From Nemertoderma westbladi (Eukaryota > Animalia > Xenacoelomorpha), in assembly GCA_032718475.1 (NCBI GenBank), contig JAUCBJ010000801.1, positions 1-33,965 on the forward strand: DNA of 33,965 nucleotides, written 5' to 3'. The translations under genes were made by a program, and so were the position numbers. Shown here in pieces: positions 567 to 33,965 of the stretch. Every line of letters starts with the position of its first letter. Position 1 is the first letter of the stretch. The notes beneath the pieces were generated by a model. It saw nothing but the letters and a program-made list of their open reading frames with translations, had not been told where the DNA came from and ran no database searches.

Positions 567-818
567 TTAATACTCTTCGTCGCCTTCTACATCGCCATCC
601 TCATCGCCCCCCGACTCCAAGGCGACCTCCTCGTAGTCCTTCTCCAGAGCCGCGAGGTCCTCGCGAGCCTCGCTAAACTCCCCCTCTTCCATCCCCTCGC
701 CGACGTACCAATGTACGAACGCTCGCTTCTGGTACATCAGATCGAACTTGTGATCTAACCTAGCCCAGGCGTCAGCAATAGCCGTAGTGTTACTCAACAT
801 GCAGACAGCCCGTTGAAC
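567..818 (-). CDS. TUBA: alpha-tubulin exon 8 (codons 371-453 and stop; acidic tail ending EEY)
   Basis: Acceptor aactag|GTT. Reads [15 protein letters not shown]...[16 protein letters not shown]...EGDEEY then TAA. Confidence 0.97.
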
Positions 819-1474: not shown

Positions 1475-1666
<192 letters not shown>

Positions 1667-5765: not shown

Positions 5766-7943
5766 ATGGTTCTTATTGGATTCTCGGTCATTATGGGCGT
5801 AACGATTATATTTCCAGTCAGCGCCGATCTATCCTACGACATAAACAAATATTCAGGTCCACCGTGGTGCCTCAAATTTACGATGGATACAACAAAATCG
5901 CGGATAGTTGTTGATCAGCGCAACTTTGGTTTGGACTCTATGAAGTGTATCGCGAAATCTTCTTTCGCAATACCGAACTTACGTTTCATGAAACTGCACC
6001 CAAATTTAAAAACGACCTTTGATAAACTTCCATACGGATTAGAGAGCAAATATTTTGGTAAACAATCGAAGAAAAATTCGGCTAAAGCTTATCTCAGTAC
6101 GCACAAGTTGACTAGTCAACATTCTGGGATGTACCAATGTGTAGCAAAGCTACCGCGGTTTACTCTGCGGGATGATTGTAGATTGGTACCGGTACAAACT
6201 ACAAAGACTATGAATAATAGTCTCAATGTAAAACAACTGAAATGTCGACGAAAGCGGAGTACTTGTGGCGTGGTTGGGAGAGATTTAATTAACACCGATA
6301 TACATCTCGGTAAATCCGTCTCCATAGCGTGGGTTGTTAGTATCACGGTTTATAAGAGGCCCGAGTTCCTTAACACGCCTAGCTACAGACATATCAGCAC
6401 AAACCACGCCAGGGGATCCTGGACTACGCTAAACTGTAGCGCCGTCGGCTACCCGAAACCTCGTCTAGACTGGGTGGTGAACCACGACCCGCATCCTATA
6501 AACCCGCGCGACAGCTGGCCTCCCTACCGATTGGGTCTGGTGCCGAAAAGATTCCCAGCCTACCAGTATAGGGAGCCGCAGCTTACAGCCCAGATAAGAT
6601 CAAACAGCTTTCTAAACGACCAGGGTTTATGGGAGGTCAAATCGAAAATGACTCTTGGTCCCCTCTACGATGGAATGCAGGTAAAATGTATAGCTAGAAA
6701 TATACACGGAACTTTTGTAGAAGAATCCAAATTCGATTACACTCTAATGATAGATAGGCTCAACTGCTCTTCGGGAAATCCGATAGAGGCGTGCGTGCAT
6801 GGATATTGCGAGGTCACAGAATACGTTATAACAATGACTGAGTGCATCTGCGATGAAGGCTGGGATGGTCGCAATTGCAACGTAGATATAGACGAGTGCA
6901 AGTACCTTAGCAGCGGCTGCTCCCACATCTGCACCAACATGGTTGGCTCCTACCGCTGCAGATGTCCGCCCCATCTGGACCTCGACGATAACGGTAAGAA
7001 TTGCGTGCCCCCCGAACCATTGGTTGCCCCCCTCTGTGGCCCCTACTACCCCAACGGTGTCTGCAGTGACGTCATAGACGTTGAGACTTCAGTCTATCTC
7101 GGACCCACTCTGTTAGAAACCGAAACGCGTTTGAAGAACGTAACGGAGCAACTTCGTGACGTTCCCTCAGTCGCTTCCCCCGAGTGTATCACACTGTTAC
7201 GTCGCTTGCTGTGTCATCTGGAGTTGCCAGAGTGCTCGGCAGAGGAGCCATCACCGAGAACGTGTTGCCCTAGCGACTGCGATGCCTTACGTCTGGGACC
7301 GTGCGCTGAATTATACAAACGGTTAAAGTTGCATCACCCAGAAACACTAAAGGGCTGCGAAACTAATCCCACAGATGATGAAAGACAGAGTCCATGCAGT
7401 GTCCTCAACCCCTACTACCCACGCGTCAATGCAACCGGGATCGGGAGTGAGTGCCTATTGGAAGGAGGGGAATTCTATAACGGGAAAGTTAATGTAACAG
7501 AAACCGGGAAAAAATGTGTGTTTTGGAAAGATGTTTCGATAAGCACAAATAACTCATCAGCAGCATTGGGAGGGATAGAACATATTTCATACGTCCACGT
7601 TATACTGGTAGATCACTCAAACTACTGCCGCAATCCCGGTAACCACCGGGGGATCCCTTGGTGCTACACCGATCCCGCTGGCACCCAATGGGAGAGTTGC
7701 ACCATCCCCGAGTGCCCAACAACACAGAGGAGTCGTAAGTCCAGCGAGACAACGAACCCAGACACGGACATCGCCGTTACATCTTCCATGGGTCTCGTCG
7801 CGTTTATCTTTTTTCTCGCGACAATCTTATTGTATCGATACCGTAACCGCGTCCACCTATTGTTGTTACAATTGCCACGGACACCACATGAGTACGGGAT
7901 ATGGCGGTCTATAGTATCTCGTGCATCGTCTAATAATACGCAG
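5766..7943 (+). CDS. ROR/MuSK-like receptor tyrosine kinase, exon 1 (signal peptide, 2 Ig-like, EGF, Ca-binding EGF, Frizzled-type CRD, kringle, TM)
   Basis: ATG at 5766 followed by a hydrophobic signal (MVLIGFSVIMGVTIIFPVSA). Ig motifs SGMYQC and LNCSAVGYPKP..W..VKCIARN. EGF motif CICDEGWDGRNC and EGF_Ca motif DIDEC...C.N..GSYRC. ROR-like CRD cysteine spacing. Kringle motif YNG...TG..C..W...NYCRNP...PWCYT...WE.C.IPEC. TM segment followed by RYRNR. Donor CAG|gtttgt at 7943/7944 is inferred. Confidence 0.88.
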
Positions 7944-8083
7944 GTTTGTTACGATAATTTACAAAATATATTTTTTACTCTAACAGAAACACAAACAGCA
8001 CCATGGCCATTATTTCAAATGTAACAAGTGATACAAAGTAATAGTAATTATTAATGTTAATGACATTTTTCATCCACATCTAG

Positions 8084-9001
8084 GGAGTTCCTAGCGATCT
8101 ATGTCGGTTCGTTATACCCCGGAAACTGTTGGTGAAGGGCAACCAATTGGGAGTTGGTGCCTTCGGGGTGGTATACGCGGCAAAAATATACGGGGTTAAA
8201 GTCGCCGTGAAGATGGTCCTGGAGGAGTCCAGCAGGATAGACGCGAACCACGAGGCTCTGCTGCTGAGTAAGTTCCAGCATGTGAACGTGGTCACTTTGG
8301 TCGCGGTTTGTATGGACGCGACTCCCTACTGCATCATAATGGAACGGGCCAAGTTGGGTGATCTGGGTAACCAAATAACCCAGTGCGACGGTCTCCCGCT
8401 GAGGGTGTCTGTGCACGCCGCTGTTCAGGTCGCCGTTGGTCTAGAATACGTCCACGGCCATCGTATAGTCCACAGGGATATCTGCACGCGTAACTGCGTG
8501 GTGCGCAGCCGCAACCAGGCGGGATATCTCCACGTGCAGATCGCGGATTTCGGGTTATCCAAGTACATCGACGAAGGGATCGAGTTCTACGCGCGGGACG
8601 GGTTCGAGCCATTCAACGTGCGGTTTAGCGCGCCCGAGGTGCTGCGTCAGGGCGACGGGCGGACCTACTTCGCCTCGGATTGGTGGAGTTTCGCGGTTTT
8701 TCTCTGGGAAGTGCTGAGCGGGTGCTCGGTGCCCTACGCGGGGCTCTCCAACGCGGAGGTGATGGACGCGGTGGGATCCAACCAGAGGATCCCACGGTCC
8801 CTAGACACCGAGCAGTGCCCGGGCAGACTGTGGCGGTTGATGCTGGCCTGTTGGAACGCCGATATTGGAGGTCGCCCCACAGCTGGCGAGATCATTGACG
8901 AGCTCAAAGAGATTCGCTATCTAATAGACAATCCACAACCAGTAGAAACCATTGTGGAGGATGTTAATGAAAACGGTGATGAGTATATAGAAATAGTATG
9001 A
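8084..9001 (+). CDS. ROR/MuSK-like receptor tyrosine kinase, exon 2 (tyrosine kinase domain and tail)
   Basis: Acceptor tttttcatccacatctag|GGA is in phase 0 with the donor at 7944 (140-nt intron; ~1031-aa product). Kinase motifs LGVGAFG, VAVK, HRDICTRN, DFG, APE, SDWWSF and CW...RP are present. Confidence 0.9.
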   Translation, partial: GVPSDLCRFVIPRKLLVKGNQLGVGAFGVVYAAKIYGVKVAVKMVLEESSRIDANHEALLLSKFQHVNVVTLVAVCMDATPYCIIMERAKLGDLGNQITQCDGLPLRVSVHAAVQVAVGLEYVHGHRIVHRDICTRNCVVRSRNQAGYLHVQIADFGLSKYIDEGIEFYARDGFEPFNVRFSAPEVLRQGDGRTYFASDWWSFAVFLWEVLSGCSVPYAGLSNAEVMDAVGSNQRIPRSLDTEQCPGRLWRLMLACWNADIGGRPTAGEIIDELKEIRYLIDNPQPVETIVEDVNENGDEYIEIV

Positions 9002-9941: not shown

Positions 9942-10645
<704 letters not shown>

Positions 10646-10682
10646 GGAATCAATATGGGTCATTCATTAATGACAAACTAAC

Positions 10683-10894
10683 CAATGGGAAATGAATCCT
10701 GGGATAGGGAACCAAGTTAGTCTGGAACTCGGTGAGGTCTACGTTGAGTGCGCCGTCGAACCGCAAGGAGGCGGTTACCGAACTCACGATCTGGCTGATA
10801 ATCCGGTTGAGGTTCGTGTAGGTGGGGTGGTCGATGTCGAGATTGCGTCGGCAGATGTCGTAGATCGCTTCATTGTCCAATAGGAAGCAGCAAT
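10683..10894 (-). CDS. TUBA: alpha-tubulin exon 5 (codons 199-269)
   Basis: Acceptor ttcag, donor TTG|gttagt. 212 nt. Reads [13 protein letters not shown]...[29 protein letters not shown]. Confidence 0.97.
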
Positions 10895-11328
10895 CTGAAC
10901 AGAAGAAACATAATTGGTTAACAACAAATATAATTAGTTTAAAAGAAACAATCCCAAAAATTGACAAAAATCACATCCCGGTGAATTAACAATGCTAATT
11001 ATCAATTAAGGGAATGGAGCCGGTTACAACAGCCTGGAATTTTATTCTAACCAAATATTGCAAATAAACAAAAAGTTCAGGATCTGTTTAATTTTTGCTC
11101 GTAATCAGCTGCTATGGGGAGAGTGGCATTCTGTTTGCATTAAGAATCCCACCCTCTATTTGAAAAGGATATATCAATAAGGGCTTCTAGAATTTATTAT
11201 TTATGTATTATGTATTTATTAACGACAATTCAATTTTAAATAAATAATACTATGTTCTAGAATTCCTTGGGGAGATCGACCAAATTATTGTTTATTGTCA
11301 TTAAATATTCTAGAATGTCTATACTAAC

Positions 11329-11504
11329 CAGAATGTTCCAATGTAGTGTGTGTCGTTAGAATAGAGTTGTAGGGTTCGACAACAGCTGTTGCTAGGTTAG
11401 GGGCAGGATATATCGCGAATTCCAACTTGGATTTCTTCCCGTAATCAACACTCAATCGCTCCATGAGTAACGCAGTAAAGCCAGATCCTGTGCCGCCACC
11501 GAAA
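11329..11504 (-). CDS. TUBA: alpha-tubulin exon 4 (codons 140-199, includes GGGTGSG signature)
   Basis: Acceptor ttgcag, donor G|gttagt. 176 nt. Reads SFGGGTGSG...[19 protein letters not shown]. Confidence 0.97.
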
Positions 11505-11607
11505 CTGCAAAGAATTAAATACAATCATCGGTCAACAACATTCTTTTTAGAGATTCAACAATAATTTGCCAAATAAATAATATTCATATTTTTCGGACAT
11601 CACCAAC

Positions 11608-11800
11608 CTATGGAATACTAGGAAGCCCTGTAATCCGGTACATTGATCAGTCAGTTTCCGAAGTTTGTCCAGTACGACATCTATAAGTTCCTTGCCGACG
11701 GTGTAATGCCCCCTAGCGTAGTTATTGGCAGCATCTTCCTTGCCGGTAATCAGCTGATCGGGATGGAATAACTGCCGATAAGTTCCCGTCCGAATTTCGT
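11608..11800 (-). CDS. TUBA: alpha-tubulin exon 3 (codons 76-140: [14 protein letters not shown]...[15 protein letters not shown]...[10 protein letters not shown])
   Basis: Acceptor ttttatacag, donor AG|gttggt. 193 nt; phase matches exons 2 and 4. Contains the conserved [13 protein letters not shown] motif. Confidence 0.97.
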
Positions 11801-11845
11801 CTGTATAAAATTAAGTTATTGATTATTGGTAGTAGTTGCTTAGAT

Positions 11846-14800
11846 TCTAGATCTACGAATATAAACTCAATAAACTCACCTACAACTGTTGGCTCTAGAT
11901 CTACGAATATAAACTCAATAAACTCACCTACGACTGTTGGCTCTAGATCTACGAATATAAACTCACCTACAACTGTTGGCTCTAGTTCTACAAATATAAA
12001 CTCAATAAACTCACCTACAACTGTTGGCTCTAGATCTACGAATATAAACTCACCTACAACTGTTGGCTCTAGATCTACGAATATAAACTCACCTACAACT
12101 GTTGGCTCTAGTTCTACAAATATAAACTCAATAAACTCACCTACAACTGTTGGCTCTAGATCTACGAATATAAACTCAATAAACTCACCTACGACTGTTG
12201 GCTCTAGATCTACGAATATAAACTCACCTACAACTGTTGGCTCTAGTTCTACAAATATAAACTCAATAAACTCACCTACAACTGTTGGCTCTAGATCTAC
12301 GAATATAAACTCACCTACAACTGTTGGCTCTAGATCTACGAATATAAACTCACCTACAACTGTTGGCTCTAGTTCTACAAATATAAACTCAATAAACTCA
12401 CCTACAACTGTTGGCTCTAGATCTACGAATATAAACTCACCTACAACTGTTGGCTCTAGATCTACGAATATAAACTCACCTACAAATGTTGGCTCTAGTT
12501 CTACAAATATAAACTCAATAAACTCACCTACAACTGTTGGCTCTAGATCTACGAATATAAACTCAATAAACTCACCTACGACTGTTGGCTCTAGATCTAC
12601 GAATATAAACTCACCTACAACTGTTGGCTCTAGTTCTACAAATATAAACTCAATAAACTCACCTACAACTGTTGGCTCTAGATCTACGAATATAAACTCA
12701 CCTACAACTGTTGGCTCTAGATCTACGAATATAAACTCACCTACAACTGTTGGCTCTAGTTCTACAAATATAAACTCAATAAACTCACCTACAACTGTTG
12801 GCTCTAGATCTACGAATATAAACTCACCTACAACTGTTGGCTCTAGATCTACGAATATAAACTCACCTACAACTGTTGGCTCTAGATCTACGAATATAAA
12901 CTCAATAAACTCACCTACAACTGTTGGCTCTAGATCTACGAATATAAACTCAATAAACTCAACTACAACTGTTGGCTCTAGATCTACGAATATAAACTCA
13001 ATAAACTCACCTACGACTGTTGGCTCTAGATCTACGAATATAAACTCACCTACAACTGTTGGCTCTAGTTCTACAAATATAAACTCAATAAACTCACCTA
13101 CAACTGTTGGCTCTAGATCTACGAATATAAACTCACCTACAACTGTTGGCTCTAGTTCTACAAATATAAACTCAATAAACTCACCTACAACTGTTGGCTC
13201 TAGATCTACGAATATAAACTCACCTACAACTGTTGGCTCTAGATCTACAAATATAAACTCACCTACAACTGTTGGCTCTAGTTCTACAAATATAAACTCA
13301 ATAAACTCACCTACAACTGTTGGCTCTAGATCTACGAATATAAACTCACCTACAACTGTTGGCTCTAGATCTACGAATATAAACTCACCTACAACTGTTG
13401 GCTCTAGTTCTACAAATATAAACTCAATAAACTCACCTACAACTGTTGGCTCTAGATCTACGAATATAAACTCACCTACAACTGTTGGCTCTAGATCTAC
13501 GAATATAAACTCACCTACAACTGTTGGCTCTAGATCTACGAATATAAACTCAATAAACTCACCTACAACTGTTGGCTCTAGATCAACGAATATAAACTCA
13601 ATAAACTCACCTACAACTGTTGGCTCTAGATCTACGAATATAAACTCACCTACAACTGTTGGCTCTAGTTCTACAAATATAAACTCAATAAACTCACCTA
13701 CAACAGTTGGCTCTAGATCTACGAATATAAACTCAACTACAACTGTTGGCTCTAGATCTACGAATATAAACTCAATAAACTCACCTACGACTGTTGGCTC
13801 TAGATCTACGAATATAAACTCACCTACAACTGTTGGCTCTAGTTCTACAAATATAAACTCAATAAACTCACCTACAACTGTTGGCTCTAGATCTACGAAT
13901 ATAAACTCACCTACAACTGTTGGCTCTAGATCTACGAATATAAACTCAATAAACTCAACTACAACTGTTGGCTCTAGATCTACGAATATAAACTCAATAA
14001 ACTCACCTACGACTGTTGGCTCTAGATCTACGAATATAAACTCACCTACAACTGTTGGCTCTAGATCTACGAATATAAACTCACCTACAACTGTTGGCTC
14101 TAGTTCTACAAATATAAACTCAATAAACTCACCTACAACTGTTGGCTCTAGATCTACGAATATAAACTCACCTACAACTGTTGGCTCTAGATCTACGAAT
14201 ATAAACTCACCTACAACTGTTGGCTCTAGTTCTACAAATATAAACTCAATAAACTCACCTACAACTGTTGGCTCTAGATCTACGAATATAAACTCACCTA
14301 CAACTGTTGGCTCTAGATCTACGAATATAAACTCACCTACAACTGTTGGCTCTAGATCTACGAATATAAACTCAATAAACTCACCTACAACTGTTGGCTC
14401 TAGATCTACGAATATAAACTCAATAAACTCAACTACAACTGTTGGCTCTAGATCTACGAATATAAACTCAATAAACTCACCTACGACTGTTGGCTCTAGA
14501 TCTACGAATATAAACTCACCTACAACTGTTGGCTCTAGTTCTACAAATATAAACTCAATAAACTCACCTACAACTGTTGGCTCTAGATCTACGAATATAA
14601 ACTCACCTACAACTGTTGGCTCTAGTTCTACAAATATAAACTCAATAAACTCACCTACAACTGTTGGCTCTAGATCTACGAATATAAACTCACCTACAAC
14701 TGTTGGCTCTAGATCTACAAATATAAACTCACCTACAACTGTTGGCTCTAGTTCTACAAATATAAACTCAATAAACTCACCTACAACTGTTGGCTCTAGA

Positions 14801-17800
14801 TCTACGAATATAAACTCACCTACAACTGTTGGCTCTAGATCTACGAATATAAACTCACCTACAACTGTTGGCTCTAGTTCTACAAATATAAACTCAATAA
14901 ACTCACCTACAACTGTTGGCTCTAGATCTACGAATATAAACTCACCTACAACTGTTGGCTCTAGATCTACGAATATAAACTCACCTACAACTGTTGGCTC
15001 TAGATCTACGAATATAAACTCAATAAACTCACCTACAACTGTTGGCTCTAGATCAACGAATATAAACTCAATAAACTCACCTACAACTGTTGGCTCTAGA
15101 TCTACGAATATAAACTCACCTACAACTGTTGGCTCTAGTTCTACAAATATAAACTCAATAAACTCACCTACAACTGTTGGCTCTAGATCTACGAATATAA
15201 ACTCAACTACAACTGTTGGCTCTAGATCTACGAATATAAACTCAATAAACTCACCTACGACTGTTGGCTCTAGATCTACGAATATAAACTCACCTACAAC
15301 TGTTGGCTCTAGTTCTACAAATATAAACTCAATAAACTCACCTACAACTGTTGGCTCTAGATCTACGAATATAAACTCACCTACAACTGTTGGCTCTAGA
15401 TCTACGAATATAAACTCAATAAACTCAACTACAACTGTTGGCTCTAGATCTACGAATATAAACTCAATAAACTCACCTACGACTGTTGGCTCTAGATCTA
15501 CGAATATAAACTCACCTACAACTGTTGGCTCTAGTTCTACAAATATAAACTCAATAAATTCACCTACAACTGTTGGCTCTAGATCTACGAATATAAACTC
15601 ACCTACAACTGTTGGCTCTAGATCTACGAATATAAACTCAATAAACTCACCTACAACTGTTGGCTCTAGATCAACGAATATAAACTCAATAAACTCACCT
15701 ACAACTGTTGGCTCTAGATCTACGAATATAAACTCAATAAACTCAACTACAACTGTTGGCTCTAGATCTACGAATATAAACTCAATAAACTCACCTACGA
15801 CTGTTGGCTCTAGATCTACGAATATAAACTCACCTACAACTGTTGGCTCTAGTTCTACAAATATAAACTCAATAAACTCACCTACAACTGTTGGCTCTAG
15901 ATCTACGAATATAAACTCACCTACAACTGTTGGCTCTAGATCTACGAATATAAACTCACCTACAACTGTTGGCTCTAGTTCTACAAATATAAACTCAATA
16001 AACTCACCTACAACTGTTGGCTCTAGATCTACGAATATAAACTCACCTACAACTGTTGGCTCTAGATCTACGAATATAAACTCACCTACAACTGTTGGCT
16101 CTAGATCTACGAATATAAACTCAATAAACTCACCTACAACTGTTGGCTCTAGATCAACGAATATAAACTCAATAAACTCACCTACAACTGTTGGCTCTAG
16201 ATCTACGAATATAAACTCACCTACAACTGTTGGCTCTAGTTCTACAAATATAAACTCAATAAACTCACCTACAACTGTTGGCTCTAGATCTACGAATATA
16301 AACTCAACTACAACTGTTGGCTCTAGATCTACGAATATAAACTCAATAAACTCACCTACGACTGTTGGCTCTAGATCTACGAATATAAACTCACCTACAA
16401 CTGTTGGCTCTAGTTCTACAAATATAAACTCAATAAACTCACCTACAACTGTTGGCTCTAGATCTACGAATATAAACTCACCTACAACTGTTGGCTCTAG
16501 ATCTACGAATATAAACTCAATAAACTCAACTACAACTGTTGGCTCTAGATCTACGAATATAAACTCAATAAACTCACCTACGACTGTTGGCTCTAGATCT
16601 ACGAATATAAACTCACCTACAACTGTTGGCTCTAGTTCTACAAATATAAACTCAATAAACTCACCTACAACTGTTGGCTCTAGATCTACGAATATAAACT
16701 CACCTACAACTGTTGGCTCTAGATCTACGAATATAAACTCAATAAACTCACCTACAACTGTTGGCTCTAGATCAACGAATATAAACTCAATAAACTCACC
16801 TACAACTGTTGGCTCTAGATCTACGAATATAAACTCACCTACAACTGATGGCTCTAGATCTACGAATATAAACTCAATAAACTCACCTACAACTGTTGGC
16901 TCTAGATCTACGAATATAAACTCACCTACAACTGATGGCTCTAGATCTACGAATATAAACTCACCTATAACTGTTGGCTCTAGATCTACGAATATAAACT
17001 CACCTACAACTGATGGCTCTAGATCTACGAGTATAAACTCAATAAACTCACCTACAACTATTGGCTCTAGATCTACGAATATAAACTCACCTACAACTGT
17101 TGGCTCTAGATCTACGAATATAAACTCACCTACAACTGTTGGCTCTAGATCTACGAATATAAACTCAATAAACTCACCTACAACTATTGGCTCTAGATCT
17201 ACGAATATAAACTCACCTACAACTGTTGGATCTAGATCTACGAAAATAAACTCAATAAACTCACCTAGAACTGTTGGCTCTAGATCTACGAATATAAACT
17301 CACCTACAACTGAGGGCTCTAGATCTACGAATATAAACTCACCTACAACTGTTGGCTCTAGATCTACGAATATAAACTCAATAAACTCACCTACAACTGT
17401 TGGCTCTATAGATCTACGAATATAAACTCAATAAACTCACCTACAACTGTTGGTTCTAGTTCAACGAATATAAACTCAATAAACTCACCTACAACTGTTG
17501 GCTCTAGATCTACGAATATAAACTCAATAAACTCACCTACAACTGTTGGCTCTATAGATCTACGAATATAAACTCAATAAACTCACCTACAACTGTTGGC
17601 TCTAGATCTACGAATATAAACTCACCTACAACTGTTGGCTCTAGATCTACGAATATAAACTCAATAAACTCACCTACAACTGTTGGCTCTAGATCTACGA
17701 ATATAAACTCAATAAACTCACCTACAACTGTTGGCTCCAGATCTACGAATATAAACTTAATAAACTCACCTACAACTATTGGCTCTAGATCTACGAATAT

Positions 17801-20800
17801 AAACTCACCTACAACTGTTGGCTCTAGATCTACGAATATAAACTCAATAAACTCACCTACAACTGTTGGGTCTAGTTCTACAAATATAAACTCAATAAAC
17901 TCACCTTCAACTGTTGGCTCTAGATCTACGAATATAAACTCAATAAACTCACCTACAACTGTTGGCTCTAGATCTACGAATATAAACTCAATAAACTCAC
18001 CTACAACTATTGGCTCTAGATCTACGAATATAAACTCAATAAACTCACCTATAACTGTTGGCTCTAGATCTACGAATATAAACTCAATAAACTCACCTAC
18101 AACTATTGGCTCTAGATCTACGAATATAAACTCACCTACAACTGTTGGCTCTAGATCTACGAATATAAACTCACCTACAACTGTTGGTTCTAGATCTACA
18201 AATATAAACTCACTTACAACTGTTGGCTCTAGATCTACGAATATAAACTCAATAAACTCACCTACAACTATTGGCTCTAGATCTACGAATATAAACTCAC
18301 CTACAACTGTTGGCTCTAGATCTACGAATATAAACTCAATAAACTCACCTACAACTGTTGGCTCTAGATCTACGAATATAAACTCAATAAACTCACCTAC
18401 AACTGTTGGCTCTAGATCTACGAATATAAACTCAATAAACTCACCTAAAACTGCTGGGTCTAGTTCTACAAATATAAACTCAATAAACTCACCTTCAACT
18501 GTTGGCTCTAGATCTACGAATATAAACTCAATAAACTCACCTACAACTGTTGGCTCTAGATCTACGAATATAAACTCAATAAGCTCACCTACAACTGTTG
18601 GCTCTAGATCTACGAATATAAACTCAATAAACTCACCTACAACTGTTGGCTCTAGATCAACGAATATAAACTCAATAAACTCACCTATAACTGTTGGCTC
18701 TAGATCTACGAATATAAATTCACCTACAACTGTTGGCTCTAGATCTACGAATATAAACTCAATAAACTCACCTACAACTGTTGGCTCTATAGATCTACGA
18801 ATATAAACTCACCTACAACTGTTGGCTCTAGATCTACGAATATAAACTCACCCACAACTGTTGGCTCTAGATCTACGAATATAAACTCACCTACAACTGT
18901 TGGCTCTAGAGCTACGAATATAAACTCACCTACAACTGTTGGCTCTAGTTCTACAAATATAAACTCAATAAACTCACCTACAACTGTTGGCTCTAGATCT
19001 ACGAATATAAACTCACCTACAACTGTTGGCTCTAGATCTACGAATATAAACTCACCTACAACTGTTGGCTCTAGATCTACGAATATAAACTCACCTACAA
19101 CTGTTGGCTCTAGATCTACGAATATAAACTCAATAAACTCACCTACAACTGTTGGCTCTAGATCTACGAATATAAACTCATCTACAACTGTTGGCTCTAG
19201 ATCTACGAATATAAACTCACCTACAACTGTTGGCTCTAGATCTACGAATATAAACTCACCTACAACTGTTGGCTCTAGATCTACGAATATAAACTCACCT
19301 ACAACTGTTGGCTCTAGATCTACGAATATAAACTCATCTACAACTGTTGGCTCTAGATCTACGAATATAAACTCACCTACAACTGTTGGCTCTAGATCTA
19401 CGAATACAAACTCATCTACAACTGTTGGCTCTATAGATCTACGAATATAAACTCACCTACAACTGTTGGCTCTAGATCTACGAATATAAACTCACCTACA
19501 ACTGTTGGCTCTAGATCTACGAATATAAACTCACCTACAACTGTTGGCTCTAGATCTACGAATATAAACTCACCTACAACTGTTGGCTCTAGATCTACGA
19601 ATATAAACTCACCTACAACTGTTGGCTCTAGATCTACGAATATAAACTCACCTACAACTGTTGGCTCTAGATCTACGAATATAAACTCACCTACAACTGA
19701 TGGCTCTAGATCTACGAATATAAACTCAATAAACTCACCTACAACTGTTGGCTCTAGATCTACGAATATAAACTCAATAAACCCACCTACAACTGTTGGC
19801 TCTAGTTCTACAAATATAAACTCAATAAACTCACCTACAACTGTTGGCTCTAGATCTACGAATATAAACTCACCTACAACTGTTGGCTCTAGATCTACGA
19901 ATATAAACTCAATAAACCCACCTACAACTGTTGGCTCTAGTTCTACGAATATAAACTCAATAAACTCACCTACAACTGTTGGCTCTAGATCAACGAATAT
20001 AAACTCAATAAACTCACCTATAACTGTTGGCTCTAGATCTACGAATATAAACTCAATAAACTCACCTACAACTATTGGCTCTAGATCTACGAATATAAAC
20101 TCACCTACAACTGTTGGCTCTAGATCTACGAATATAAACTCACCTACAACTGTTGGCACTAGATCTACGAATATAAACTCACCTACAACTGTTGGCTCTA
20201 GATCTACGAATATAAACTCAATAAACTCACCTACAACTGTTGGCTCTATAGATCTACGAATATAAACTCACCTACAACTGTTGGCTCTAGATCTACGAAT
20301 ATAAACTCACCCACAACTGTTGGCTCTAGATCTACGAATATAAACTCACCTACAACTGTTGGCTCTAGATCTACGAATATAAACTCACCTACAACTGTTG
20401 GCTCTAGTTCTACAAATATAAACTCAATAAACTCACCTACAACTGTTGGCTCTAGATCTACGAATATAAACCCACCTACAACTGTTGGCTCTAGATCTAC
20501 GAATATAAACTCACCTACAACTGTTGGCTCTAGATCTACGAATATAAACTCACCTACAACTGTTGGCTCTAGATCTACGAATATAAACTCAATAAACTCA
20601 CCTACAACTGTTGGCTCTAGATCTACGAATATAAACTCAATAAACTCACCTACAACTGTTGGCTCTAGATCTACGAATATAAACTCATCTACAACTGTTG
20701 GCTCTAGATCTACGAATATAAACTCACCTACAACTGTTGGCTCTAGATCTACGAATATAAACTCACCTACAACTGTTGGCTCTAGATCTACGAATATAAA

Positions 20801-23800
20801 CTCACCTACAACTGTTGGCTCTAGATCTACGAATATAAACTCATCTACAACTGTTGGCTCTAGATCTACGAATATAAACTCACCTACAACTGTTGGCTCT
20901 AGATCTACGAATATAAACTCATCTACAACTGTTGGCTCTATAGATCTACGAATATAAACTCACCTACAACTGTTGGCTCTAGATCTACGAATATAAACTC
21001 ACCTACAACTGTTGGCTCTAGATCTACGAATATAAACTCACCTACAACTGTTGGCTCTAGATCTACGAATATAAACTCACCTACAACTGTTGGCTCAAGA
21101 TCTACGAATATAAACTCACCTACAACTGTTGGCTCTAGATCTACGAATATAAACTCACCTACAACTGATGGCTCTAGATCTACGAATATAAACTCAATAA
21201 ACTCACCTACAACTGTTGGCTCTAGATCTACGAATATAAACTCAATAAACCCACCTACAACTGTTGGCTCTAGTTCTACAAATATAAACTCAATAAACTC
21301 ACCTACAACTGTTGGCTCTAGATCTACGAATATAAACTCACCTACAACTGTTGGCTCTAGATCTACGAATATAAACCCAATAAACCCACCTACAACTGTT
21401 GGCTCTAGTTCTACAAATATAAACTCAATAAACTCACCTACAACTGTTGGCTCTAGATCTACGAATATAAACTCACCTACAACTGTTGGCTCTAGATCTA
21501 CGAATATAAACTCACCTACAACTGTTGGCTCTAGTTCTACAAATATAAACTCAATAAACTCACCTACAACTGTTGGCTCTAGATCTACGAATATAAACCT
21601 ACCTACAACTGTTGGCTCTAGATCTACGAATATAAACCTACCTACAACTGTTGGCTCTAGATCTACGAATATAAACTCAATAAACTCACCTACAACTGTT
21701 GGCTCTAGATCTACGAATATAAACTCAATAAACCCACCTACAACTGTTGGCTCTAGATCTACGAATATAAACTCAATAAACCCACCTACAACTGTTGGCT
21801 CTAGATCTACGAATATAAACTCACCTACAACTGTTGGCTCTAGATCTACGAATATAAACTCAATAAACTCACCTACAACTGTTGGCTCTAGATCTACGAA
21901 TATAAACTCAATAAACTCACCTACAACTGTTGGCTCTAGATCTACGAATATAAACTCAATAAACTCACCTACAACTGTTGGCTCTAGATCTACGAATATA
22001 AACTCAATAAACTCACCTACAACTGTTGGCTCTAGATCTACGAATATAAACTCAATAAACTCACCTACAACTGTTGGCTCTAGATCTACGAATATAAACT
22101 CAATAAACTCACCTACAACTGTTGGCTCTAGATCTACGAATATAAACTCAATAAACTCACCTACAACTGTTGGCTCTAGATCTACGAATATAAACTCACC
22201 TACACCTGTTGGCTCTAGATCTACGAATATAAACTCACCTACAACTGTTGGCTCTAGATCTACGAATATAAACTCACCTACACCTGTTGGCTCTAGATCT
22301 ACGAATATAAACTCACCTACACCTGTTGGCTCTAGATCTACGAATATAAACTCACCTACACCTGTTGGCTCTAGATCTACGAATATAAACTCACCTACAA
22401 CTGTTGGCTCTAGTTCTACAAATATAAACTCAATAAACTCACCTACAACTGTTGGCTCTAGATCTACGAATATAAACCTACCTACAACTGTTGGCTCTAG
22501 ATCTACGAATATAAACTCAATAAACCCACCTACAACTGTTGGCTCTAGATCTACGAATATAAACTCACCTACAACTGTTGGCTCTAGATCTACGAATATA
22601 AACTCACCTACACCTGTTGGCTCTAGATCTACGAATATAAACTCACCTACAACTGTTGGCTCTAGTTCTACAAATATAAACTCAATAAACTCACCTACAA
22701 CTGTTGGCTCTAGATCTACGAATATAAACCTACCTACAACTGTTGGCTCTAGATCTACGAATATAAACTCAATAAACCCACCTACAACTGTTGGCTCTAG
22801 ATCTACGAATATAAACTCACCTACAACTGTTGGCTCTAGATCTACGAATATAAACTCAATAAACTCACCTACAACTGTTGGCTCTAGATCTACGAATATA
22901 AACTCAAAAAAATCACCTACAACTGTTGGCTCTAGATCTACGAATATAAACTCAATAAACTCACCTACAACTGTTGGCTCTAGATCTACGAATATAAACT
23001 CACCTACAACTGTTGGCTCTAGATCTACGAATATAAACTCACCTACAACTGTTGGCTCTAGATCTACGAATATAAACTCAATAAACTCACCTACAACTGT
23101 TGGCTCTATAGATCTACGAATATAAACTCACCTACAACTGTTGGCTCTAGATCTACGAATATAAACTCACCCACAACTGTTGGCTCTAGATCTACGAATA
23201 TAAACTCACCTACAACTGTTGGCTCTAGATCTACGAATATAAACTCACCTACAACTGTTGGCTCTAGTTCTACAAATATAAACTCAATAAACTCACCTAC
23301 AACTGTTGGCTCTAGATCTACGAATATAAACTCACCTACAACTGTTGGCTCTAGATCTACGAATATAAACTCACCTACAACTGTTGGCTCTAGATCTACG
23401 AATATAAACTCACCTACAACTGTTGGCTCTAGATCTACGAATATAAACTCAATAAACTCACCTACAACTGTTGGCTCTAGATCTACGAATATAAACTCAT
23501 CTACAACTGTTGGCTCTAGATCTACGAATATAAACTCACCTACAACTGTTGGCTCTAGATCTACGAATATAAACTCACCTACAACTGTTGGCTCTAGATC
23601 TACGAATATAAACTCACCTACAACTGTTGGCTCTAGATCTACGAATATAAACTCATCTACAACTGTTGGCTCTAGATCTACGAATATAAACTCACCTACA
23701 ACTGTTGGCTCTAGATCTACGAATACAAACTCATCTACAACTGTTGGCTCTATAGATCTACGAATATAAACTCACCTACAACTGTTGGCTCTAGATCTAC

Positions 23801-26800
23801 GAATATAAACTCACCTACAACTGTTGGCTCTAGATCTACGAATATAAACTCACCTACAACTGTTGGCTCTAGATCTACGAATATAAACTCACCTACAACT
23901 GTTGGCTCTAGATCTACGAATATAAACTCACCTACAACTGTTGGCTCTAGATCTACGAATATAAACTCACCTACAACTGTTGGCTCTAGATCTACGAATA
24001 TAAACTCACCTACAACTGATGGCTCTAGATCTACGAATATAAACTCAATAAACTCACCTACAACTGTTGGCTCTAGATCTACGAATATAAACTCAATAAA
24101 CCCACCTACAACTGTTGGCTCTAGTTCTACAAATCTAAACTCAATAAACTCACCTACAACTGTTGGCTCTAGATCTACGAATATAAACTCACCTACAACT
24201 GTTGGCTCTAGATCTACGAATATAAACTCAATAAACCCACCTACAACTGTTGGCTCTAGTTCTACGAATATAAACTCAATAAACTCACCTACAACTGTTG
24301 GCTCTAGATCAACGAATATAAACTCAATAAACTCACCTATAACTGTTGGCTCTAGATCTACGAATATAAACTCAATAAACTCACCTACAACTATTGGCTC
24401 TAGATCTACGAATATAAACTCACCTACAACTGTTGGCTCTAGATCTACGAATATAAACTCACCTACAACTGTTGGCTCTAGATCTACGAATATAAACTCA
24501 CCTACAACTGTTGGCTCTAGTTCTACAAATATAAACTCAATAAACTCACCTACAACTGTTGGCTCTAGATCTACGAATATAAACTCACCTACAACTGTTG
24601 GCTCTAGATCTACGAATATAAACCCAATAAACCCACCTACAACTGTTGGCTCTAGTTCTACAAATATAAACTCAATAAACTCACCTACAACTGTTGGCTC
24701 TAGATCTACGAATATAAACTCACCTACAACTGTTGGCTCTAGATCTACGAATATAAACTCACCTACAACTGTTGGCTCTAGTTCTACAAATATAAACTCA
24801 ATAAACTCACCTACAACTGTTGGCTCTAGATCTACGAATATAAACCTACCTACAACTGTTGGCTCTAGATCTACGAATATAAACTCAATAAACCCACCTA
24901 CAACTGTTGGCTCTAGATCTACGAATATAAACTCACCTACAACTGTTGGCTCTAGATCTACGAATATAAACTCAATAAACTCACCTACAACTGTTGGCTC
25001 TAGATCTACGAATATAAACTCAATAAACTCACCTACAACTGTTGGCTCTAGATCTACGAATATAAACTCAATAAACTCACCTACAACTGTTGGCTCTAGA
25101 TCTACGAATATAAACTCAATAAACTCACCTACAACTGTTGGCTCTAAATCTACGAATATAAACTCAATAAACTCACCTACAACTGTTGGCTCTAGATCTA
25201 CGAATATAAACTCAATAAACTCACCTACAACTGTTGGCTCTAGATCTACGAATATAAACTCAATAAACTCACCTACAACTGTTGGCTCTAGATCTACGAA
25301 TATAAACTCACCTACACCTGTTGGCTCTAGATCTACGAATATAAACTCACCTACAACTGTTGGCTCTAGATCTACGAATATAAACTCACCTACACCTGTT
25401 GGCTCTAGATCTACGAATATAAACTCACCTACACCTGTTGGCTCTAGATCTACGAATATAAACTCACCTACACCTGTTGGCTCTAGATCTACGAATATAA
25501 ACTCACCTACAACTGTTGGCTCTAGTTCTACAAATATAAACTCAATAAACTCACCTACAACTGTTGGCTCTAGATCTACGAATATAAACCTACCTACAAC
25601 TGTTGGCTCTAGATCTACGAATATAAACTCAATAAACCCACCTACAACTGTTGGCTCTAGATCTACGAATATAAACTCACCTACAACTGTTGGCTCTAGA
25701 TCTACGAATATAAACTCACCTACACCTGTTGGCTCTAGATCTACGAATATAAACTCACCTACAACTGTTGGCTCTAGTTCTACAAATATAAACTCAATAA
25801 ACTCACCTACAACTGTTGGCTCTAGATCTACGAATATAAACCTACCTACAACTGTTGGCTCTAGATCTACGAATATAAACTCAATAAACCCACCTACAAC
25901 TGTTGGCTCTAGATCTACGAATATAAACTCACCTACAACTGTTGGCTCTAGATCTACGAATATAAACTCAATAAACTCACCTACAACTGTTGGCTCTAGA
26001 TCTACGAATATAAACTCAATAAACTCACCTACAACTGTTGGCTCTAGATCTACGAATATAAACTCAATAAACTCACCTACAACTGTTGGCTCTAGATCTA
26101 CGAATATAAACTCACCTACAACTGTTGGCTCTAGATCTACGAATATAAACTCACCTACAACTGTTGGCTCTAGATCTACGAATATAAACTCAATAAACTC
26201 ACCTACAACTGTTGGCTCTATAGATCTACGAATATAAACTCACCTACAACTGTTGGCTCTAGATCTACGAATATAAACTCACCCACAACTGTTGGCTCTA
26301 GATCTACGAATATAAACTCACCTACAACTGTTGGCTCTAGATCTACGAATATAAACTCACCTACAACTGTTGGCTCTAGTTCTACAAATATAAACTCAAT
26401 AAACTCACCTACAACTGTTGGCTCTAGATCTACGAATATAAACTCACCTACAACTGTTGGCTCTAGATCTACGAATATAAACTCACCTACAACTGTTGGC
26501 TCTAGATCTACGAATATAAACTCACCTACAACTGTTGGCTCTAGATCTACGAATATAAACTCTCTACAACTGTTGGCTCTAGATCTACGAATATAAACTC
26601 ACCTACAACTGTTGGCTCTAGATCTACGAATATAAACTCACCTACAACTGTTGGCTCTAGATCTACGAATATAAACTCACCTACAACTGTTGGCTCTAGA
26701 TCTACGAATATAAACTCATCTACAACTGTTGGCTCTAGATCTACGAATATAAACTCACCTACAACTGTTGGCTCTAGATCTACGAATACAAACTCATCTA

Positions 26801-29800
26801 CAACTGTTGGCTCTATAGATCTACGAATATAAACTCACCTACAACTGTTGGCTCTAGATCTACGAATATAAACTCACCTACAACTGTTGGCTCTAGATCT
26901 ACGAATATAAACTCACCTACAACTGTTGGCTCTAGATCTACGAATATAAACTCACCTACAACTGTTGGCTCTAGATCTACGAATATAAACTCACCTACAA
27001 CTGTTGGCTCTAGATCTACGAATATAAACTCACCTACAACTGTTGGCTCTAGATCTACGAATATAAACTCACCTACAACTGATGGCTCTAGATCTACGAA
27101 TATAAACTCAATAAACTCACCTACAACTGTTGGCTCTAGATCTACGAATATAAACTCAATAAACCCACCTACAACTGTTGGCTCTAGTTCTACAAATATA
27201 AACTCAATAAACTCACCTACAACTGTTGGCTCTAGATCTACGAATATAAACTCACCTACAACTGTTGGCTCTAGATCTACGAATATAAACTCAATAAACC
27301 CACCTACAACTGTTGGCTCTAGTTCTACGAATATAAACTCAATAAACTCACCTACAACTGTTGGCTCTAGATCAACGAATATAAACTCAATAAACTCACC
27401 TATAACTGTTGGCTCTAGATCTACGAATATAAACTCAATAAACTCACCTACAACTATTGGCTCTAGATCTACGAATATAAACTCACCTACAACTGTTGGC
27501 TCTAGATCTACGAATATAAACTCACCTACAACTGTTGGCTCTAGATCTACGAATATAAACTCACCTACAACTGTTGGCTCTAGATCTACGAATATAAACT
27601 CAATAAACTCACCTACAACTGTTGGCTCTATAGATCTACGAATATAAACTCACCTACAACTGTTGGCTCTAGATCTACGAATATAAACTCACCCACAACT
27701 GTTGGCTCTAGATCTACGAATATAAACTCACCTACAACTGTTGGCTCTAGATCTACGAATATAAACTCACCTACAACTGTTGGCTCTAGTTCTACAAATA
27801 TAAACTCAATAAACTCACCTACAACTGTTGGCTCTAGATCTACGAATATAAACTCACCTACAACTGTTGGCTCTAGATCTACGAATATAAACTCACCTAC
27901 AACTGTTGGCTCTAGATCTACGAATATAAACTCACCTACAACTGTTGGCTCTAGATCTACGAATATAAACTCAATAAACTCACCTACAACTGTTGGCTCT
28001 AGATCTATGAATATAAACTCAATAAACTCACCTACAACTGTTGGCTCTAGATCTACGAATATAAACTCATCTACAACTGTTGGCTCTAGATCTACGAATA
28101 TAAACTCACCTACAACTGTTGGCTCTAGATCTACGAATATAAACTCACCTACAACTGTTGGCTCTAGATCTACGAATATAAACTCACCTACAACTGTTGG
28201 CTCTAGATCTACGAATATAAACTCATCTACAACTGTTGGCTCTAGATCTACGAATATAAACTCACCTACAACTGTTGGCTCTAGATCTACGAATATAAAC
28301 TCATCTACAACTGTTGGCTCTAGATCTACGAATATAAACTCACCTACAACTGTTGGCTCTAGATCTACGAATATAAACTCACCTACAACTGTTGGCTCTA
28401 GATCTACGAATATAAACTCACCTACAACTGTTGGCTCTAGATCTACGAATATAAACTCACCTACAACTGTTGGCTCTAGATCTACGAATATAAACTCACC
28501 TACAACTGATGGCTCTAGATCTACGAATATAAACTCAATAAACTCACCTACAACTGTTGGCTCTAGATCTACGAATATAAACTCAATAAACCCACCTACA
28601 ACTGTTGGCTCTAGTTCTACAAATATAAACTCAATAAACTCACCTACAACTGTTGGCTCTAGATCTACGAATATAAACTCACCTACAACTGTTGGCTCTA
28701 GATCTACGAATATAAACTCAATAAACCCACCTACAACTGTTGGCTCTAGTTCTACAAATATAAACTCAATAAACTCACCTACAACTGTTGGCTCTAGATC
28801 TACGAATATAAACTCACCTACAACTGTTGGCTCTAGATCTACGAATATAAACTCACCTACAACTGTTGGCTCTAGTTCTACAAATATAAACTCAATAAAC
28901 TCACCTACAACTGTTGGCTCTAGATCTACGAATATAAACCTACCTACAACTGTTGGCTCTAGATCTACGAATATAAACTCAATAAACCCACCTACAACTG
29001 TTGGCTCTAGATCTACGAATATAAACTCACCTACAACTGTTGGCTCTAGATCTACGAATATAAACTCAATAAACTCACCTACAACTGTTGGCTCTAGATC
29101 TACGAATATAAACTCAATAAACTCACCTACAACTGTTGGCTCTAGATCTACGAATATAAACTCAATAAACTCACCTACAACTGTTGGCTCTAGATCTACG
29201 AATATAAACTCAATAAACTCACCTACAACTGTTGGCTCTAGATCTACGAATATAAACTCAATAAACTCACCTACAACTGTTGGCTCTAGATCTACGAATA
29301 TAAACTCAATAAACTCACCTACAACTGTTGGCTCTAGATCTACGAATATAAACTCAATAAACTCACCTACAACTGTTGGCTCTAGATCTACGAATATAAA
29401 CTCACCTACACCTGTTGGCTCTAGATCTACGAATATAAACTCACCTACAACTGTTGGCTCTAGTTCTACAAATATAAACTCAATAAACTCACCTACAACT
29501 GTTGGCTGTAGATCTACGAATATAAACCTACCTACAACTGTTGGCTCTAGATCTACGAATATAAACTCAATAAACCCACCTACAACTGTTGGCTCTAGAT
29601 CTACGAATATAAACTCACCTACAACTGTTGGCTCTAGATCTACGAATATAAACTCACCTACACCTGTTGGCTCTAGATCTACGAATATAAACTCACCTAC
29701 AACTGTTGGCTCTAGTTCTACAAATATAAACTCAATAAACTCACCTACAACTGTTGGCTCTAGATCTACGAATATAAACCTACCTACAACTGTTGGCTCT

Positions 29801-32800
29801 AGATCTACGAATATAAACTCACCTACACCTGTTGGCTCTAGATCTACGAATATAAACTCACCTACAACTGTTGGCTCTAGTTCTACGAATATAAACTCAC
29901 CTACAACTGTTGGCTCTAGATCTACGAATATAAACTCACCTACACCTGTTGGCTTTAGATCTACGAATATAAACTCACCTACAACTGTTGGCTCTAGTTC
30001 TACAAATATAAACTCAATAAACTCACCTACAACTGTTGGCTCTAGATCTACGAATATAAACTCACCTACAACTGTTGGCTCTAGATCTACGAATATAAAC
30101 TCAATAAACTCACCTACAACTGTTGGCTCTAGATCTACGAATACAAACTCAATAAACTCACCTACAACTGTTGGCTCTAGATCTACGAATATAAACTCAA
30201 TAAACTCACCTACAACTGTTGGCTCTAGATCTACGAATATAAACTCACCTACAACTGTTGGCTCTAGATCTACGAATATAAACTCACCTACACCTGTTGG
30301 CTCTAGATCTACGAATATAAACTCACCTACACCTGTTGGCTCTAGATCTACGAATATAAACTCACCTACAACTGTTGGCTCTAGTTCTACAAATATAAAC
30401 TCAATAAACTCACCTACAACTGTTGGCTCTAGATCTACGAATATAAACTCACCTACAACTGTTGGCTCTAGATCTACGAATATAAACTCAATAAACTCAC
30501 CTACAACTGTTGGCTCTAGATCTACGAATATAAACTCACCTACACCTGTTGGCTCTAGATCTACGAATATAAACTCACCTACAACTGTTGGCTCTAGTTC
30601 TACAAATATAAACTCAATAAACTCACCTACAACTGTTGGCTCTAGATCTACGAATATAAACTCACCTACAACTGTTGGCTCTAGATCTACGAATATAAAC
30701 TCACCTACACCTGTTGGCTCTAGATCTACGAATATAAACTCACCTACAACTGTTGGCTCTAGTTCTACAAATATAAACTCAATAAACTCGCCTACAACTG
30801 TTGGCTCTAGATCTACGAATATAAACTCACCTACAACTGTTGGCTCTAGTTCTACAAATATAAACTCAATAAACTCACCTACAACTGTTGGCTCTAGATC
30901 TACGAATATAAACTCACCTACAACTGTTGGCTCTAGATCTACGAATATAAACTCACCTACACCTGTTGGCTCTAGATCTACGAATATAAACTCACCTACA
31001 ACTGTTGGCTCTAGTTCTACAAATATAAACTCAATAAACTCACCTACAACTGTTGGCTCTAGATCTACGAATATAAACTCACCTACAACTGTTGGCTCTA
31101 GATCTACGAATATAAACTCAATAAACTCACCTACAACTGTTGGCTCTAGATCTACGAATATAAACTCAATAAACTCACCTACAACTGTTGGCTCTAGATC
31201 TACGAATATAAACTCAATAAACTCACCTACAACTGTTGGCTCTAGATCTACGAATATAAACTCAATAAACTCACCTACAACTGTTGGCTCTAGATCTACG
31301 AATATAAACTCACCTACACCTGTTGGCTCTAGATCTACGAATATAAACTCACCTACAACTGTTGGCTCTAGATCTACGAATATAAACTCACCTACACCTG
31401 TTGGCTCTAGATCTACGAATATAAACTCACCTACAACTGTTGGCTCTAGTTCTACAAATATAAACTCAATAAACTCACCTACAACTGTTGGCTCTAGATC
31501 TACGAATATAAACTCACCTACAACTGTTGGCTCTAGTTCTACAAATATAAACTCAATAAACTCACCTACAACTGTTGGCTCTAGATCTACGAATATAAAC
31601 TCACCTACAACTGTTGGCTCTAGATCTACGAATATAAACTCACCTACACCTGTTGGCTCTAGATCTACGAATATAAACTCACCTACAAATGTTGGCTCTA
31701 GTTCTACAAATATAAACTCAATAAACTCACCTACAACTGTTGGCTCTAGATCTACGAATATAAACTCACCTACAACTGTTGGCTCTAGATCTACGAATAT
31801 AAACTCAATAAACTCACCTACAACTGTTGGCTCTAGATCTACGAATATAAACTCAATAAACTCACCTACAACTGTTGGCTCTAGATCTACGAATATAAAC
31901 TCAATAAACTCACCTACAACTGTTGGCTCTAGATCTACGAATATAAACTCAATAAACTCACCTACAACTGTTGGCTCTAGATCTACGAATATAAACTCAC
32001 CTACACCTGTTGGCTCTAGATCTACGAATATAAACTCACCTACAACTGTTGGCTCTAGATCTACGAATATAAACTCAATAAACTCACCTACAACTGTTGG
32101 TTCTAGATCTACGAATATAAACTCAATAAACTCACCTACAACTGTTGGCTCTAGATCTACGAATATAAACTCAATAAACTCACCTACAACTGTTGGCTCT
32201 AGATCTACGAATATAAACTCAATAAACTCACCTACAACTGTTGGTTCTAGATCTACGAATATAAACTCAATAAACTCACCTACAACTGTTGGCTCTAGAT
32301 CTACGAATATAAACTCAATAAACTCACCTACAACTGTTGGTTCTAGATCTACGAATATAAACTCAATAAACTCACCTACAACTGTTGGCTCTAGATCTAC
32401 GAATATAAACTCAATAAACTCACCTTCAACTGTTGGCTCTAGATCTACGAATATAAACTCACCTACAACTGTTGGCTCTAGATCTACGAATATAAACTCA
32501 CCTACAACTGTTGGCTCTAGATCTACGAATATAAACTCACCTACAACTGTTGGCTCTAGATCTACGAATATAAACTCAATAAACTCACCTACAACTGTTG
32601 GTTCTAGATCTACGAATATAAACTCAATAAACTCACCTACAACTGTTGGCTCTAGATCTACGAATATAAACTTAATAAACTCACCTACAACTGTTGGCTC
32701 TAGATCTACGAATATAAACTCACCTACAACTGTTGGCTCTAGATCTACGAATATAAACTCACCTACAACTGTTGGCTCTAGATCTACGAATATAAACTCA

Positions 32801-33566
32801 CCTACAACTGTTGGCTCTAGATCTACGAATATAAACTCAATAAACTCACCTACAACTGTTGGCTCTAGATCTACGAATATAAACTCACCTACAACTGTTG
32901 GCTCTAGATCTGCGAATATAAACTCAATAAACTCACCTACAACTGTTGGCTCTAGATCTACGAATATAAACTCACCTACAACTGTTGGCTCTAGATCTAC
33001 AAATATAAACTCAATAAACTCACCTACAACTGTTGGCTCTAGATCTACGAATATAAACTCACCTACAACTGTTGGTTCTAGATCTACGAATATAAACTCA
33101 ATAAACTCACCTACAACTGTTGGCTCTAGATCTACGAATATAAACTCACCTACAACTGTTGGCTCTAGATCTACGAATATAAACTCAATAAACTCACCTA
33201 CAACACTGTTGGCTCTAGATCTACGAATATAAACTCAATAAACTCACCTACAACTGTTGGCTCTAGATCTACGAATATAAACTCAATAAACTCACCTAAA
33301 ACTGTTGGGTCTAGTTCTACAAATATAAACTCAATAAACTCACCTTCAACTGTTGGCTCTAGATCTACGAATATAAACTCAATAAACTCACCTACAACTG
33401 TTGGCTCTAGATCTACGAATATAAACTTAATAAACTCACCTACAACTGTTGGCTCTAGATCTACGAATATAAACTCAATAAACTCACCTACAACTGTTGG
33501 CTCTAGATCTACGAATATAAACTCAATAAACTCACCTACAACTGTTGGCTCTAGATCTACGAATAT
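11846..33566. repeat. Giant minisatellite of 39-bp and 48-bp units (~500 copies) derived from the exon 2 / intron 2 junction
   Basis: Unit is CTCACCTACAACTGTTGGCTCTAGATCTACGAATATAAA with or without CTCAATAAA. At 21.7 kb this gives 450-560 copies. The last unit overlaps tubulin exon 2. Confidence 0.99.
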
Positions 33567-33758
33567 TGCTCGAGGAACGTGTTTCCCATTTCCCGTTTCG
33601 CTAAAGAAAGTATTAAAGGAATCGTCCCCGTACCCTATCGTCTTATCCGACGGCATCTGTCCATCAGGCTGGATTCCATGTTCCAGACAGTAGAGTTCCC
33701 AACAGGAGTTCCCGATCTGGGCACCAGCTTGTCCAATATGAATCGAGATACACTCACG
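33536..33758 (-). CDS. TUBA: alpha-tubulin exon 2 (codons 2-76: [12 protein letters not shown]...PSDK40...[13 protein letters not shown])
   Basis: Translates to the alpha-tubulin N-terminus. Acceptor ttttttatttag|CGT, donor GTAG|gtgagt. Length is 223 nt, the classic exon between the post-ATG intron and the phase-1 intron at codon 76. No ATG|gt found in 33761-33965, so exon 1 is outside the window. Confidence 0.97.
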
Positions 33759-33965
33759 CTAAATAAAAAATAGAAAACAAACAGTAATATAATTTCTGGA
33801 TTATGACCCGGGGGTTACATTCATTAAAATGTCATTGAACGGCACATAATTATGGTCTAGTTAATTAAAATAACTTTTGAAATAACAAGTAAAGGTATAA
33901 TTAAAAATATATTATTATAATATAGAATTGTTGTAAATAATATAAACAATTTTCAAATAGAATGA

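Follow-up and report, generated by a model that had tools for sequence, protein, structure and literature searches.

A 504-unit array of an exon end and its 5′ splice site fills intron 2 of an alpha-tubulin gene in Nemertoderma westbladi

We analyzed a 33,965-nt stretch of DNA from the xenacoelomorph Nemertoderma westbladi (contig JAUCBJ010000801.1 of assembly GCA_032718475.1, positions 1 to 33,965 of the forward strand; hereafter, the window), in which intron 2 of an alpha-tubulin gene (33535-11801, minus strand, 21,735 nt by decomposition of the window sequence) consists, except for 45 nt, of tandem copies of the end of exon 2 together with its 5′ splice site, or donor. This array is genuine in the DNA of two samples, with an exact length that is approximate since no record spans it, and a spliced RNA contig from a third sample joins exon 2 to exon 3 as the product of the first donor. 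We consider it probable that the array is a minisatellite grown by ordinary slippage and unequal exchange, the decoy donors of which are ignored through exon definition. It is an extreme case of a known kind of boundary repeat and not, by itself, a new mechanism.

The tubulin gene lies on the minus strand with seven exons within the window, which together give 452 codons with no internal stops, and all six of its introns have GT-AG ends. Its protein is 84.7 to 90.8% identical to four compared proteins, three of which align without gaps, and many animals' tubulins match at ≈90 to 91% identity. An open frame, GT-AG introns and a gap-free match to alpha-tubulin mark an intact gene, and the gene is intact at this locus, with a start codon that lies beyond the window; the exons flanking the array had been called intact in an initial annotation of this DNA, and the open frame of 452 codons agrees. 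Our numbering presumes that the start codon lies in a first exon beyond the window; a search of 33759-33965 found no such exon. Exon 2 (33536..33758, minus strand, 223 nt) is supported by a Pfam Tubulin match, the intact frame and the spliced contig described below, and its last 31 nt are unit one of the array, ending at the donor in use.

The donor array (11846..33566, minus strand) was delimited by Tandem Repeats Finder, which reports 504.4 copies at 11846-33566, by unit decomposition and by depth in sequencing runs. Decomposition resolves 504 full units, followed by a partial unit of 17 nt, over 21,721 bp, which bears out the initial annotation in its estimate of a 21.7-kb, ≈500-copy array, in its definition of the unit as the last 31 nt of exon 2 plus the authentic donor and in its count of 45 unique intron nt (11801-11845) before the exon 3 acceptor. 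This unique 3′ remainder of the intron, defined by sequence and runs, precedes the acceptor at 11801 and holds a branch-like motif ≈11 nt upstream of it. Each unit comprises 31 nt of exon end followed by 8 nt (39-nt form) or 17 nt (48-nt form) of intron start, and the first of the 504 is the genuine exon end. Unit lengths are 39 nt (274 units), 48 nt (217), 50 nt (eight), 41 nt (four) and 38 nt (one), and the array as a whole takes up 65% of the sequence that runs from exon 2 to the stop codon. Over the 39-nt core of the 491 units of 39 or 48 nt, identity to the consensus averages 98.4%. The sequence TAG/GTGAGT (the slash marks the splice site) is found in 434 of the 504 units, the real one counted, whereas 45 retain GT in an altered context and 25 lack it; the authentic donor 9-mer is copied exactly in 433 of the 503 decoys. 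A head-to-tail unit lying across an exon-intron boundary, with the splice signal repeated into the intron, is the arrangement of an exon-boundary minisatellite, and the unit sizes (39 and 48 nt here, and 26 nt in a second array discussed below) fall within the 10 to 160 bp of cited cases (PMC3087553).

The internal structure of the array suggests how it has evolved. It contains 60 unit types, 34 of which occur once, with variants shared between units in nested blocks, and we find seven internal block duplications of 0.8 to 1.7 kb that score 53 to 112, compared with a best score of 22 among 20 shuffles; this pattern points to repeated unequal exchange and to past turnover of the array. Selection to weaken the decoys was considered and rejected: 11 of 41 distinct substitutions fall in the donor 9-mer versus 9.5 expected, only one of the first 84 units has lost GT, and preservation is best among the decoys closest to the exon, so that we see no sign of selection to silence them. 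Folding of RNA or DNA was likewise rejected as a cause of donor choice or expansion, with z values of -0.46 to +0.91 for four-unit arrays against shuffled-unit arrays, and as a donor selector, with a first donor no more exposed than the following 21.

To place the array in independent data, we compared four public runs (X1, X2, X3 and X4) over 10600-11960. X3 and X4 represent one sample, X1 another and X2 a third; X1 is possibly the source of the assembly, and X3 comes from a separate sample and study. In X1, X3 and X4, a single-copy contig ends within the last unit, at 11875, and the unit itself is covered by short contigs of high depth, with none of the contigs listed for these runs continuing from the array into exon 2. 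Two unit contigs in X1 reach 0.70 and 0.76 of the depth predicted from window 31-mer counts, corresponding to ≈350 to 385 units with a single-copy depth that is uncertain up to twofold, and the summed array depth in X3 is ≈620 times single copy. X4 shows only 0.04 to 0.10 of the k-mer depth predicted for 504 units, despite deriving from the same sample as X3, and across these ratios (0.70-0.76 in X1, 0.04-0.10 in X4 and higher in X3), library bias is inseparable from allele length. Read depth, which the initial annotation had proposed as a check, is thus in favor of a long array in X1 and X3 and falls far short in X4. The idea that the array is an assembly artefact draws on this shortfall and on the lack of a spanning record in any compared run, but the X1 and X3 depths, and the nested blocks of shared variants among the 60 unit types, make it barely credible. 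As a separate observation, the gap between X3 and X4 in array depth relative to single copy is ≈eightfold, and the array holds 437 GATC sites; digestion of the library at GATC could account for the deficit in X4.

Evidence on splicing comes from X2, a run recorded as "DNA?" and recognized as spliced RNA only from its joints. Its contig 9 (4,061 nt, depth 459) lacks introns 3 and 4, each removed precisely at its GT-AG ends, passes from exon 3 into a single 31-nt copy followed by 30 letters that match the unique portion of exon 2, and also joins exon 5 to exon 6 through the last acceptor copy. The authentic, exon-proximal donor is therefore used in mature mRNA, as documented by a single run, from a sample for which the intron itself was not seen, and the 33536-11800 junction that the initial annotation put forward for checking is present in that contig. 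X2 has zero cover on the unique parts of introns, and contig 9 depth accounts for all X2 signal in six of six bins at or beside both arrays. A retrocopy was rejected as the source of the spliced contig, given this lack of intron cover in X2 and the absence of all three joints from the three DNA runs. By arithmetic, contig 9 extends ≈2,460 nt upstream of exon 2, far above the usual tubulin leader, and this part may be a long leader, an overlapping neighbor, a polycistronic RNA or the product of a chimeric contig.

Which allele gave rise to this mRNA bears directly on its meaning. Over exons 3 to 5, X2 has no differences from the window in 581 nt, and an X1 haplotype that differs at eight of those 581 sites also carries both arrays. 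The long allele might nonetheless be badly spliced or silent, with the clean mRNA coming from an allele with few or no repeats: X2 lacks any array sequence, paralogous tubulin contigs that occur in X2 could cover for a weak gene, and longer alleles of the human ABCA7 repeat lower expression and raise exon skipping (PMC5954066). We judge this unlikely in view of the identity of X2 to the window and the presence of both arrays on the more divergent X1 haplotype, of the break at the array edge (11875) in the runs of both DNA samples, in which no listed contig reaches exon 2, and of the intact tubulin frame.

The X2 contigs, which drop rare forms, also include no array-bearing transcript, and this extends to the six in-frame products of donors 2 to 7. 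These six decoys, which add 48 to 288 nt, would give stop-free products, whereas all other alternative donors, past unit 7, lead to a premature stop. It is conceivable that the in-frame decoys act as an isoform dial by which alpha-tubulin gains 16-residue repeats, a notion in keeping with the 491 of 504 units that are multiples of three (39 or 48 nt) and with the absence of stops through donor 7. We nevertheless regard it as very improbable, as the frame breaks at unit 7, with 13 shifts over the whole array, no such contig is found in X2, and the protein aligns to animal tubulins without gaps.

A second junction array, not noted in the initial annotation of the donor array, resides in the same gene and offers a further view of site choice. 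Within the 609-nt intron 5, Tandem Repeats Finder identifies 22.5 copies of a 26-nt unit (10067..10645, minus strand) made up of 19 nt of pyrimidine-rich intron end and 7 nt of exon 6; the array is found in DNA runs X1, X3 and X4, and the X2 contig end at 10682 reads into exon 6. There are thus 22 extra acceptor copies upstream, 17 with an intact AG, and the last copy is the one in use in X2. The copy immediately before the real acceptor has lost its AG. All 17 intact alternative acceptors lead to a premature stop, and decay could therefore hide their use.

In both arrays, the site in use adjoins the real exon, and the first donor differs in context from its decoys, being alone in having a real acceptor 223 nt upstream. 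The presence of two arrays in one gene provides a natural two-way test of splice-site pairing: exon definition predicts the first donor and the last acceptor, shortest-intron pairing the opposite, namely the last donor, for an intron of 79 nt, and an early acceptor copy, for one of 42-120 nt, and first-come scanning the first site for both, including the first acceptor. The first donor and the last acceptor each give the shortest exon, in line with exon definition. The same pair could also be what survives sloppy site choice, either of the nearest pair across the intron or at random, followed by decay of transcripts with premature stops. The last donor would give an ordinary-looking 79-nt GT-AG intron, and donors past unit 7, like all 17 intact upstream acceptors, create such stops; however, the six stop-free decoys (+48 to +288 nt) would escape decay and yet are not among the X2 contigs, and a random pick among 479 GT-bearing units would leave very little correct mRNA compared with a contig depth of 459. 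On balance, we find sloppy choice decidedly unlikely.

We favor instead a reading in which ordinary repeat slippage and unequal exchange enlarged the array, and in which only the first donor would pair with a real acceptor across the short exon, leaving 503 decoys ignored. The decoys would be orphans, idle because the unit holds no good acceptor; rare slips past unit 7 would run into a premature stop and undergo decay, and the array, probably without a function of its own, would be tolerated by the cell. We infer these mechanistic steps from sequence and one contig. AG sites in the unit look like poor acceptors: none of the window's eight real acceptors has an AG at -25 to -4, and their pyrimidine fraction is 0.53 to 0.82, whereas the AG contexts tested in the unit have two to four AGs in that interval in 10 of 10 cases and a pyrimidine fraction of 0.41 to 0.59.

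This comparison also bears on stepwise removal, the other solution that the initial annotation had allowed beside choice of the first donor. In recursive splicing, an intron is removed through ratchet points, where an AG directly precedes a GT donor inside a long intron, accompanied by a pyrimidine tract, a branch site and no close upstream AG, and nascent intermediates and lariats are its signature. Here, a cut to any unit's TAG/GT would restore the exon end and donor without a mark on the mRNA, which would be the same for one step or many. The array does contain the AG/GT arrangement, with TAG/GTGAGT in 434 of 504 units, but not a good acceptor context: the AG before the donor has four other AGs within 25 nt upstream, versus none in eight of eight real acceptors, the pyrimidine fraction is 0.47, and no branch-like motif precedes the unit AG. 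Moreover, this AG is merely the last two bases of the exon and needs no special explanation, and the motif shows no selection to keep it. Stepwise removal is disfavored by the poor acceptors of the unit to the point of being highly unlikely. An elaboration, in which several hundred ratchet points form a ladder and the timing or amount of this tubulin depends on the length of the array, would yield the mRNA as observed and seems to us highly doubtful.

Several considerations weigh against accurate choice of the first donor by exon definition. The X2 sample differs from those of the DNA runs, and the intron of the X2 individual was not seen; with ≈300 exact copies per 31-mer, trace unspliced RNA should assemble, and the total lack of array sequence in X2 also fits a short allele there. 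Contigs assembled from steady-state RNA would look alike under accurate choice and under error followed by decay, 17 of 17 alternative acceptors and all but six alternative donors lead to a premature stop, and contigs drop rare variants. The comparison of acceptors rests on eight introns. Finally, the authors of work on a boundary repeat in the human F7 gene favor oriented scanning, and their data only partly fit exon definition (PMC1557585).

As to origin, a tiny ancestral intron inflated by repeats is plausible, as intron 2 stripped of repeats would be 53 to 79 nt. The gene's other introns are mostly short; introns elsewhere in the window that serve for comparison with intron 2 measure 103, 140, 434 and 671 nt. 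A scan of metagenome contigs for the unit pattern returned no matches, and a search for relatives of a nested kinase gene (see below) among 213 candidate stretches found none, so that no orthologous intron was seen.

The remaining tubulin exons, all on the minus strand, are exon 3 (11608..11800), exon 4 (11329..11504) and exon 5 (10683..10894), each placed by frame and the X2 contig; exon 6 (9948..10073), placed by frame and with its first 30 nt present in the X2 contig; and exon 7 (1490..1666) and exon 8 with the stop codon (567..818), both assigned from sequence alone, including a Pfam Tubulin match for the latter. T occupies the +3 position in five of the seven donors in the window (11607, 11328, 10682, 9947 and 7944), which is unusual relative to the consensus given in PMC1557585. 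Intron 4 harbors a 50-nt dispersed repeat at 10979-11029, the summed depth of which is in the thousands in all four runs. The 8.3-kb intron 6 contains, nested antisense, a two-exon receptor tyrosine kinase gene (5766-9001, plus strand, ≈1,030 codons) with a 140-nt intron at 7944-8083 and Ig, EGF, Frizzled, kringle, membrane-span and kinase domains. No whole-length relative of this gene was found, only single-domain matches, the best kinase match being at 29%, and its outer part had no match among 2,985 candidates. Also in intron 6, 3177-3320 and 3770-3950 appear by eye to be long copies of one another in inverted orientation and may form a small foldback element.

Boundary repeats of this kind have precedents, and the degree of surprise expressed in the initial annotation was overstated. 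Human F7 intron 7 carries a 37-bp variable number tandem repeat (VNTR) of five to nine copies, the first unit of which lies across the exon-intron boundary; of its identical donors only the most upstream is used, and the decoys work once the first is mutated, distant ones less well (PMC1557585). Boundary minisatellites of 10 to 26 copies, in which the first donor or first few donors are used, are described for 6-16, CBS, LAMIN B2 and PDGF (PMC1557585). The tubulin array resembles that of F7 in a unit across the boundary, identical pseudo-donors after it and use of the most upstream donor, but has 504 copies and 31 nt of copied exon against 4 nt in F7; furthermore, decoy competence in F7 was established by mutation, whereas the decoys here are known from their sequence only. 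Human ABCA7 intron 18 contains a VNTR of 25-bp donor-bearing units, with a largest allele of 10,678 bp (≈427 units), and both the canonical donor and that of the second unit are reported (PMC5954066). Both the ABCA7 and tubulin arrays begin at the exon's donor and repeat it hundreds of times; in contrast, the ABCA7 unit starts at GT whereas the tubulin unit copies 31 nt of exon with each donor, and the tubulin array, at 21.7 kb and 504 units, has twice the length and is large in both of the DNA samples seen rather than a rare expansion.

Repeats at exon boundaries have also been described in human paralogs (PMC2812944), and the "mirages" of lancelets (the globins BflGb6 and BflGb9, Adh3, troponin C and PGBD5) are tandem 5′ or 3′ exon boundaries of unstable length that reportedly leave splicing undisturbed, with both kinds together in PGBD5 (PMC3087553, PMC3902484). 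The tubulin gene likewise has boundary copies in an invertebrate and, as in PGBD5, both kinds in one gene, but its donor array is ≈100 times larger than that of BflGb6 (three and six copies) and 98% homogeneous. In the Drosophila Y genes kl-3 and kl-5, introns are filled with satellites made up of simple repeats, which have no relation to the host gene's splice sites. These megabase-sized introns (PMC6508621, PMC11207136) share with intron 2 the inflation of a protein-coding gene by satellite DNA, although at 21.7 kb the latter falls well below giant introns of hundreds of kilobases to megabases.

Against this background, what is new here is the scale (504 units, 21.7 kb), the 31 nt of copied exon context and the paired acceptor array, and this is the longest exon-boundary repeat in the literature searched, with most subscription journals outside that search and supplements that may hold larger counts. 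With sequence variants among the 60 unit types, nascent reads could be assigned to the copy used. If the long allele is accurately spliced, first-donor fidelity would extend from 5 to 26 decoys, or ≈427 in rare human alleles, to 500, in the presence of 31 nt of identical exon context. Set beside F7, ABCA7 and the lancelet genes, the tubulin array is likely an unusually large but tolerated boundary repeat.

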